A model generated the notes under the pieces. That model worked only from the letters and a program-made list of their open reading frames with translations. It was not told the DNA's origin and searched no databases. The position numbers and the translations under genes were made by a program. A DNA stretch of 58,947 nucleotides, the filler included, from Basidiobolus ranarum (taxonomy: Eukaryota), in NCBI GenBank assembly GCA_040143965.1. It is 3 parts of 3 records of this genome, joined end to end, with 100 filler letters (N's around TTAATTAATTAA, not from the genome) between each part and the next. Parts side by side here need not be neighbours in the genome. Positions count along the whole stretch, not along the records: positions 39,406 to 58,947 come from JASJQH010000248.1; 2 more parts are not named here. The stretch is one strand, 5' to 3'. Shown in pieces: positions 41,174-44,100 of this stretch (its first letter is position 1; each line of letters begins with the position of its first letter).

Positions 41174-44100
41174 ATGTCTCGTCTTAGGCCTAATGTCAAA
41201 CATAATACCATTCTTTACGATGACGATTCCTTTATGCAAAGAAAGCCATTCGAAGATTACGTGATTTGCTGTACTGGACTATCCTCCGGGATTAAAGTAA
41301 TATAATCTCTTTTGATAAGCAGAATTGAATCTTGCATCTTTCTATCGTTTTTTGGAAGCGCATCTATCAAAATCATTGTATATTTATATATATTTATTCG
41401 TAGCAAACTCTCTATTCTCAAGTTGAAGAGCTTGGTGGACGGATTCAACCAGATTTTACCGCGGAGGTCACACATTTGATTGCTGATAAAGTCGGTTCTG
41501 AGAAGTACAAGGTAAGACAATCTCTTGCGGCATTAAATCCTCCCCGCAAAGAGCGAATTATTTATAACAATGCTTCTATTAATTAGGCAGCGATTCGATG
41601 CCAAATTCCTATATTAACACCGAGTTGGACAGAACAATGTTATCAATATTTTAAGAATAGTGAAGATTTTGAACCTAATGCAGTACGTTGATTTAAAAGA
41701 AACTCCTTGAATACCTTGCTTAGTATAATATCAATTCCAGATCTCCAAACTTCACGTGCTTTCACCTTTAGCTGGATGCTGTATATGCGTGACTGGACTA
41801 TCCGGAGGTATGTAGCCATTAGTTTTGAAAATATGTACGGCTATTTATTTTGGTTACTTACTTGCCAACAGATGAAAGAGAGGCTGTAGAAAAGATGACC
41901 ATAGAGAATGGGGGTGAATATTCGGCAGCTTTAACAATGCCTTGCACACATTTAATAGTAAAGATATCCTTTTGTTTTTGTTGATTTTTTGCCTATATGT
42001 TAGTGTAGCAGTCAAGTTATATTATCTTTGACTTATATAAACGCTCCAGAAGGTAGAAAATTCCAAGCCGCTGTCAAACGAAATCTGCATATAGTCAACC
42101 CTGACTGGCTTTACGAATGCATCAAACAAAAAGGTAACTCTCTCTGTTGATTATATGCATTGAAAATATTGATTCCTAATTTATGAAATTTAGCTTGTGT
42201 CAATGAAGTTCTATATCCAGCTGTTGCCAACCCCGACTCAATGGCAGCAGGTAAACCGCACCTGTGTCATATTTTTTTCAAGAATTTTCACTTATTTTAT
42301 TACTGTATAGGTTCGACTCTTCGTAGAAGTGGAACTTTAACACAAGATCGACAACGTTTACTTCGAGAAAACAAGGATTCCACTATGTATCTCGATGGAT
42401 GCAATATATACTTTGGCGATGGTTTTGGACCAGAGAAGATGATGCTTATGAAGAAAATTATCGTAGATGGTGGAGGCTCACGACATTCCGATTTTATAGC
42501 ATGTATTACACATTTCGTAGCAAGTAACAGTACCCTAACAGAGAAGTAAGTCTATATCAGAATGCCTTTTTATTAATACTGAATATTGATCCTCTTTCGT
42601 TCAAACCACAGAGACAAAGACTTATTACGACATACCACCAACAAGCCCATAATTGTACATAGTAAATGGTTACAAGATTGTTATAGAGATTGCACTCTAC
42701 ATCCTACCAACCAATATTCCATTGAGTTTTTGGAAGGAGAGTTCGCCCGGAATGATTTTCACGGCATTGATGAAAATGGTAAATTACGTGGGCAATTTCA
42801 AGGAAACCCAAAAACCATTACAGAGACCAAAGAATCTGACCAGCGAGCAACAGTACGCAAAAACCCTGCAGTGACTGGCGGCAACTCCATGGTTAAGAGT
42901 AAAAACTTTTGGGAGGATTTAGCTGAAGACATGAAAGAAGAAATTTACCCAACTGCAAAGAATGCCAGTTCTCATCTTTTGCACAGAAGTAGAAGCACTA
43001 TGTCTGTTGCAGAGGTTAAGGCTTCCGAAAAAACTCCTTTGGAAAAGCGTACTAGAAGTTTAACTCCGCATTGTCCTTCTCAGGAGGCTTCACTTGGTTT
43101 GGAATTGGCATATACCACAAGATCAAAAGAGTTGGATAACGGCTCTGATGTAGCTAAACAATCAACCAAATCCGGGATTTTTTCAGAATACTTTTTCTTT
43201 TGTCAAAACTTCCCAGTTGATCAGGTAACTAATATTCATGTAAATAGTTAGTTTACGAGATATCATGCTAAAATATTTACCTTTTGTATAATACAGAAAC
43301 AAATTGTCGAGAAGGTAGTCCTCGATAATGGAGGTTCATTTTATTCCGAGGCCCCTCACTCTTTGACAGCCCCAGTCGACAAATACTTTCGAATCGTCCC
43401 TCTTAAAAGGTAAGAATGCTTCTTTTCCTTAATACTTACAATCATACAACTAACATCGGGTGACATTTAATCAGTCAACAATCAGCAACGGCAAACATGA
43501 GATTTAAAACAGCAACTGAGTGTTGGCTCGAAAGCTGTATAGATGTAAGCCTGCATCCATAGAAACTAATTTTTTACACACTTCAACCTGACATCGAATG
43601 TTTCATTAGGAGCAGCGTCTGATACCACTAGAAGAGAAGGTTATATATTCCCCCTTAAAGACTCAATTTCCAATCAAAGGTAAGTCAAATGTATATACAC
43701 CTTAAAAGACTAATTTCTTATCTAACCTTCTTGAGAACAGAGTTTCGAAATTACTATATTGGTATAACCGGCTACACGGAACTAGAAAGAGAGCATATTG
43801 GTCGCTTGTGCATTACTCTTGGTGCCACATTTAGTGAGCGTTTTAGCAAAAAGTACACTCATCTCATTTGCAAACAAAAATCTGGAGTAAAATATCGACG
43901 CGCCGTAGAATGGGGGATACCTGTTGTGGATTCGGATTGGATATTTGATATAGCAAAGAATGTTAGAAATTCCCCATTTTTATCTCGCACGTGAAACAGT
44001 CTTACATTGTATTGTGAAGCTAACTAAATACATGTTTGTGTAGGGCATCAAACCAGATCATCAAAATCTAATCTCGAACGAAATAGAGGGGAGAAATGAA

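Follow-up and report, generated by a model that had tools for sequence, protein, structure and literature searches.

The stretch of Basidiobolus ranarum DNA analysed here (the window, 58,947 nt) comprises three contigs separated by runs of N at 19643-19742 and 39306-39405, and the TOPBP1 gene lies wholly on the last of these (G000:C248). Mapping of the deposited protein P0001 and Pfam searches placed the gene on the plus strand at 41174-47456, from ATG to stop, with 24 exons and 23 introns encoding 1567 aa. P0001 (1567 residues, labelled Basidiobolus ranarum Dpb11 by NCBI) was retrieved using the last exon as query, is 100% identical, and maps letter for letter onto the exons of the window. 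Pfam identified six BRCT stretches plus a TopBP1-type C-terminal BRCT in this protein (BRCT, PTCB-BRCT, and BRCT_TopB1_SLF1). The arrangement of an N-terminal BRCT pair, central repeats, and a C-terminal pair is that of the TOPBP1/Dpb11/Rad4/MEI1 family, and the protein is collinear with P0002, P0003, and the long homologues among 150 matches. The original prediction had named the gene TOPBP1 and the interrupted repeat BRCT2, and the BRCT array, the NCBI name, and the collinear homologues bear out both; the label BRCT2 follows human numbering. Upstream of the gene, an open frame on the plus strand (39628-40386) resembles, from a motif recognized by eye, a pyroglutamyl peptidase, and a tandem array of about four copies of a 16-nt unit occupies 40681-40746.

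The introns of the gene range from 58 to 107 nt and comprise 21 GT-AG and two AT-AC introns. The first of the AT-AC introns, intron 5 (41964-42042, plus strand), is 79 nt long, lies in phase 0, and was assigned to the U12 type from its motifs and from protein mapping. It begins with a ATATCCTTT donor and ends in AC. The 5' splice site, ATATCCTTTT at 41964-41973, agrees with the U12 donor pattern RTATCCTT(T), and seven consecutive pairs are possible between this donor and the 5' end of the U11 of the same genome. The branch site, TCTTTGAC at 42025-42032, is of the TCCTTRAC-like kind found roughly 10-20 nt from the 3' end of such introns and differs from TCCTTAAC at two positions. It can pair with GUAAGGA of the genome's U12, two of the pairs being G-U and the A bulging out, in a register taken from known U12 pairing, which makes A42031 the predicted branch A, 11 nt ahead of the terminal C at 42042. 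The 3' splice site, AC at 42041-42042, follows the branch site with no intervening pyrimidine tract. In the translated window, excision of 41964-42042 fuses exon 5 (41872-41963), which ends with PCTHLIVK in the first part of BRCT2, to exon 6 (42043-42133), which opens the second part of the repeat with APEGRKFQAAV; CTHLIVK and APEGRKF are joined in phase 0. The AT-AC termini thereby restore the protein. If the intron is retained, the frame closes at a stop after ISFCFC, six extra residues. The coordinates, length, AT-AC class, and branch A that had been proposed for this intron were all reproduced exactly, as was the restored CTHLIVK-APEGRKF junction, with which the spacing in homologues agrees.

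The second AT-AC intron, intron 22, spans 45454-45537 on the plus strand (84 nt, phase 1) and was recognized by its motifs and by mapping of P0001, with a branch site matching by motif, TTCTTAAC, at 45520-45527. It splits CTHLIH|QGSKVA and interrupts the BRCT repeat that covers residues about 904-1001. Intron 5 begins 18 nt and intron 22 begins 16 nt from the start of the THL motif, so the two positions are near each other but not identical. Within the window, the full anatomy of donor, 30-60 nt, branch site, and AC has two matches, and the TOPBP1 gene contains both of them (at 41964 and at 45454); 60 simulated windows of matched trinucleotide make-up gave a mean of 0.017 per window. Since intron retention leads to an early stop, full-length Dpb11/TOPBP1 would need the removal of both 41964-42042 and 45454-45537. 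Contrary to the expectation that standard annotation would likely miss the intron, the deposited P0001 already splices both AT-AC junctions; we regard this use of the junctions as agreement and not as independent proof.

A search of the genome with Rfam models returned one full-length match each for U11, U12, U4atac, and U6atac. U11 (84.6 bits against a cut-off of 39) and U6atac (66.3 bits against 33) scored above threshold, and U12 (49.4 bits) and U4atac (46.6 bits) fell just below a cut-off of 53. Pairing between U4atac and U6atac is possible at -29.9 kcal/mol. Upstream of each of the four minor snRNA genes (L001-L004) stand RTCCCAYA, at -63 to -68, and, nearer the gene, a TATA-like word at -26 to -38; the background is eight such upstream-element sites in 117,894 window positions. 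This shared element provides contextual support for the sub-threshold U12 and U4atac genes. RTCCCAYA together with the TATA-like word constitutes a candidate snRNA promoter element of B. ranarum, and RTCCCAYA has what we take to be a resemblance to the plant snRNA upstream element. Among minor spliceosome proteins, CCDC84/CENATAC, Ubiquitin_4 (the SNRNP25 family), PDCD7, and zf-U11-48K gave Pfam matches above cut-off, four candidates identified by family profile only. Genome-wide, an AT-AC U12-like pattern matched 93 times versus 20 times for a reversed control pattern, and a GT-AG U12-like pattern 57 times versus three in the control; these counts are rough and do not amount to a catalogue, because the search was strict and the same donor can recur in several rows; U12 pattern searches are also inflated by a dispersed repeat that contains TCCTTAAC. 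The snRNA check proposed with the original prediction found genes for all four RNAs, and the suggestion of a working minor spliceosome in this early-diverging fungus is supported, at the level of sequence, by the snRNA genes, the protein candidates, and the pattern excess. One pair of AT-AC U12-like matches lies about 1 kb apart on one strand (G000:C80:9093-9164 and 10111-10183; L019 and L020), perhaps in a second two-intron gene.

In minor splicing, the U11/U12 di-snRNP binds the donor and the branch site jointly, and U4atac/U6atac.U5 joins after. At intron 5, U11 would pair with ATATCCTTTT and U12 with TCTTTGAC, bulging A42031. U4atac/U6atac.U5 would then join, A42031 would attack the donor, and two transesterifications would ligate K162 to A163 of BRCT2.

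Metagenome contigs were scanned for homologous loci, and two of the 362 candidate stretches examined were confirmed (L039 and L040). L039:246-4337 encodes P0002, a protein with a full BRCT array, without introns, on a eukaryotic contig of 28% GC. L040 is a plant MEI1/TOPBP1 gene, the exons of which are about 73-100% identical to the Arabidopsis-hybrid protein P0003; MEI1 is TopBP1, At1g77320 (PMC8706423). The plant gene contains a 253-nt AT-AC intron at L040:7124-7376, which reads ATATCCTTTG...TTCCTTGAC-CTTGCATAC. This intron (ATATCCTTTG...TTCCTTGACCTTGCATAC) splits CTHLIAD|AAEGDKY, its aligned position and phase equal those of fungal intron 5, and P0003 is continuous across the junction, as expected. 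The two introns share the THLxxx| site, phase 0, the ATATCCTTT donor, a TCCTTGAC-type branch site, and the AC end, but differ in length (253 nt in the plant, 79 nt in the fungus). Five of the first six fungal introns (intron 5 and the major introns 1, 2, 4, and 6) are each matched in the plant gene by an intron of identical position and phase; for fungal intron 3, no partner was found in L040. Intron 22 has no plant counterpart for comparison, since the C-terminal BRCT repeats are missing from the plant protein. TOPBP1 was absent from the eight supplementary files of a human/mouse minor-intron catalogue (PMC6717393) and from the accessible supplement of PMC11347168, much of which uses Ensembl identifiers. 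Its absence from the human and mouse lists suggests that mammals probably lost or converted the minor intron. A search of 151 proteins for read-through signatures (THLxxx-ISF/VSF and THLx-xIL), as indirect traces of the intron in other lineages, gave one match, in an unrelated C-terminal stretch, and was uninformative.

The boundaries of intron 5 could be drawn differently. The original prediction held that the nearby GT gives wrong frames, which is true for the AGs at 42049, 42052, 42056, and 42067 but does not hold for the in-frame AG at 42003. Enumeration of frames therefore leaves a 46-nt GT-AG intron at 41958-42003 (plus strand), to be removed by the major spliceosome, with the U12-like motifs being incidental. 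This intron keeps the frame without stops and has a GTAAAG donor and a T-rich tract ahead of TTAG. Its use would, however, add 11 residues within BRCT2, giving CTHLI-CSSQVILSLTYIN-APEGRKF, in which 13 residues replace VK. We compared the two products against the homologues that match the junction region at E<=1e-13 (44 of 150 other proteins). The AT-AC product scored higher in 44/44, by a mean of 7.7 bits, and none preferred the GT-AG product; the distance from THLx to K[YFH] is seven residues in 43 of the 44 and in the AT-AC product, and 18 in the GT-AG product. The 46-nt intron also lies below the size range of the gene's 23 introns, is not used in P0001, and leaves the U12 donor, the branch site, the AC end, and the plant intron without explanation, and on homologue comparison as well as on these grounds we rejected it as highly improbable. 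Enumeration of alternative in-frame junctions listed 29 stop-free options, of which only the AT-AC junction leaves the conserved BRCT2 residues intact, the others causing insertions, deletions, or replacements. The combination of a U1-type donor, a pyrimidine tract, and a homologue-consistent product that marks a U2-type intron was not found at intron 5. Rare U2-dependent AT-AC introns are mentioned in the literature (PMC1557818), and the major spliceosome might remove intron 5 at its AT-AC ends, a reading that could draw on the imperfect match of TCTTTGAC to the U12 branch consensus and on the atypical U6atac box of this genome. Against it, the donor reads ATCCTTT from +3 to +9, which is complementary to U11 and unlike the gene's 21 GT donors, the intron has no pyrimidine tract, and the minor snRNA set of the genome is complete; we give this reading hardly any weight.

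The age of the intron is a separate matter, as plant and fungus could have gained U12-type introns separately at one codon boundary. The match depends on a single plant locus, L039 is intronless, and human and mouse TOPBP1 are missing from the minor-intron lists searched, all of which would be compatible with separate gains. On the other hand, position, phase, and the rare subtype are all equal, and the two genes have four neighbouring major introns in common as well. At most about 0.5% of introns are of the minor class (PMC10639083), which makes common descent the simplest reading and separate gain improbable. Intron 5 is thus probably older than the plant-fungus split, as judged from one plant locus. 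We are highly confident that 41964-42042 is a U12-type AT-AC intron that would be removed by the organism's own minor spliceosome and that most likely goes back to an ancestor shared by plants and fungi; its splicing at these ends in the cell, the use of U11 and U12 in place of U1 and U2, and common descent as opposed to parallel gain are what we infer.

The U6atac gene (L002:1501-1634; G000:C89:21836-21969) departs from the usual form. It reads GAGUCGAGAG versus the Rfam consensus GAAAGGAGAG, with GUCGA replacing the usual AAGGA, and GUCGA cannot form the pairs with donor positions +6/+7 that are ascribed to AAGGA. A DNA search of the genome, of a kind that can miss diverged copies, found no second U6atac copy, and the GUCGA form is known from one assembly. 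Upstream of the U6atac gene, at about -88 to -61, GAGTCGAGAG and CAATCCC occur again with nearly the spacing that they have within it; this may reflect a partial duplicate that has decayed, or chance. When positions +6 to +8 of the donor were left free, 35 of 83 rows began with ATATCCTT and seven with ATATCGA (hand count). A compensatory class of ATATCGA donors matching GUCGA was considered and rejected, as all but one of these rows (6/7) belong to one dispersed repeat family. In 12 aligned copies of this repeat (L045-L056), the likeness extends about 170 nt upstream of the AT and 150 nt downstream of the AC, within an approximately 400-nt TG...CA element, which indicates that the repeat is not an intron-forming element. 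The repeat has TGTTGAA...TT(T/C)AACA ends, is solo-LTR-like, and is often tandem or nested; a look-alike lies near position 2963 of the window.

Variant U6atac boxes have been described before. A "CC variant" with [GU]CCGA occurs in Trichoplax, cnidarians, a sponge, amoebozoans, a moss, and oomycetes (Davila Lopez et al. 2008, PMC2396436), and the same paper gives AAGGA for the U6atac of the fungi Rhizopus oryzae and Phycomyces blakesleeanus and terms the [GU]CCGA variant difficult to explain. As in the CC variant, AAGGA is swapped in B. ranarum for a box unable to pair fully with the canonical donor, and the donors stay canonical; unlike it, the box is GUCGA and not [GU]CCGA, and the variant is not listed for fungi in the accessible part of that paper (PMC2396436). 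No U6atac box variants in fungi were found in the literature searched, judged by titles and abstract openings. The GUCGA U6atac bears on an open point raised in 2008, namely how variant U6atac RNAs recognize canonical minor donors.

The genus has been reported as rich in minor introns, and the surprise implied by the original prediction is reduced accordingly. In B. meristosporus, 249 minor introns were counted, 0.554% of introns and the highest density among fungi (Larue and Roy 2023, PMC10639083), or 237 in another study (Olthof et al. 2024, PMC11347168 Table S4), and U11 and U6atac were above the Rfam threshold with U12 and U4atac putative only (PMC11347168 Table S7). Minor snRNAs are also present in zygomycetes and chytrids (PMC2396436). 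B. meristosporus thus resembles B. ranarum in genus, intron class, and the pattern of snRNAs above and below cut-off (PMC10639083, PMC11347168), and differs as a species, going by the name on P0001. TOPBP1 or dpb11 was not named in the searched text or supplements on B. meristosporus (PMC10639083, PMC11347168), of which the per-intron data sets may list the orthologue. The literature searched, as far as its text was accessible, contained no report of a TOPBP1/MEI1 AT-AC intron, and Arabidopsis AT-AC lists (DROL1 preprint Table 1 and the TITAN LIKE preprint) may hold the plant intron, as may the online data of the two minor-intron surveys (PMC10639083, PMC11347168). The supplements of PMC2831892 and PMC2426677, in their accessible parts, gave no match for the terms asked (TOPBP1 or At1g77320), and PMC2426677 may use other identifiers. 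PAXIP1 (PTIP), which also encodes BRCT repeats, appears among the minor-intron-containing genes of human and mouse (PMC6717393 supplement); like TOPBP1, it encodes a BRCT-domain DNA-damage scaffold and has U12-type introns (PMC6717393), but it belongs to a paralogous family.

Intron 5 adds little to the published evidence that Basidiobolus has a minor spliceosome. What it adds is a minor intron that probably dates back to the plant-fungus ancestor, located in a core replication/checkpoint gene and missing from mammal-centred lists; such an intron is of use in counting ancestral minor introns and in the debate on minor-intron enrichment in cell-cycle genes. Our broader reading, which we hold tentatively and at slightly less than even likelihood, is that the BRCT2 AT-AC intron is ancient and went unnoticed because mammals no longer carry it as a minor intron, that Basidiobolus Dpb11 needs the minor spliceosome at two introns, and that this machinery works with a GUCGA U6atac, a fungal counterpart of the CC variant, on ATATCCTT donors. 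If this is true, pairing at donor positions +6/+7 would be dispensable, a point open to testing in a fungus that can be cultured and has some 150 or more introns of this kind.
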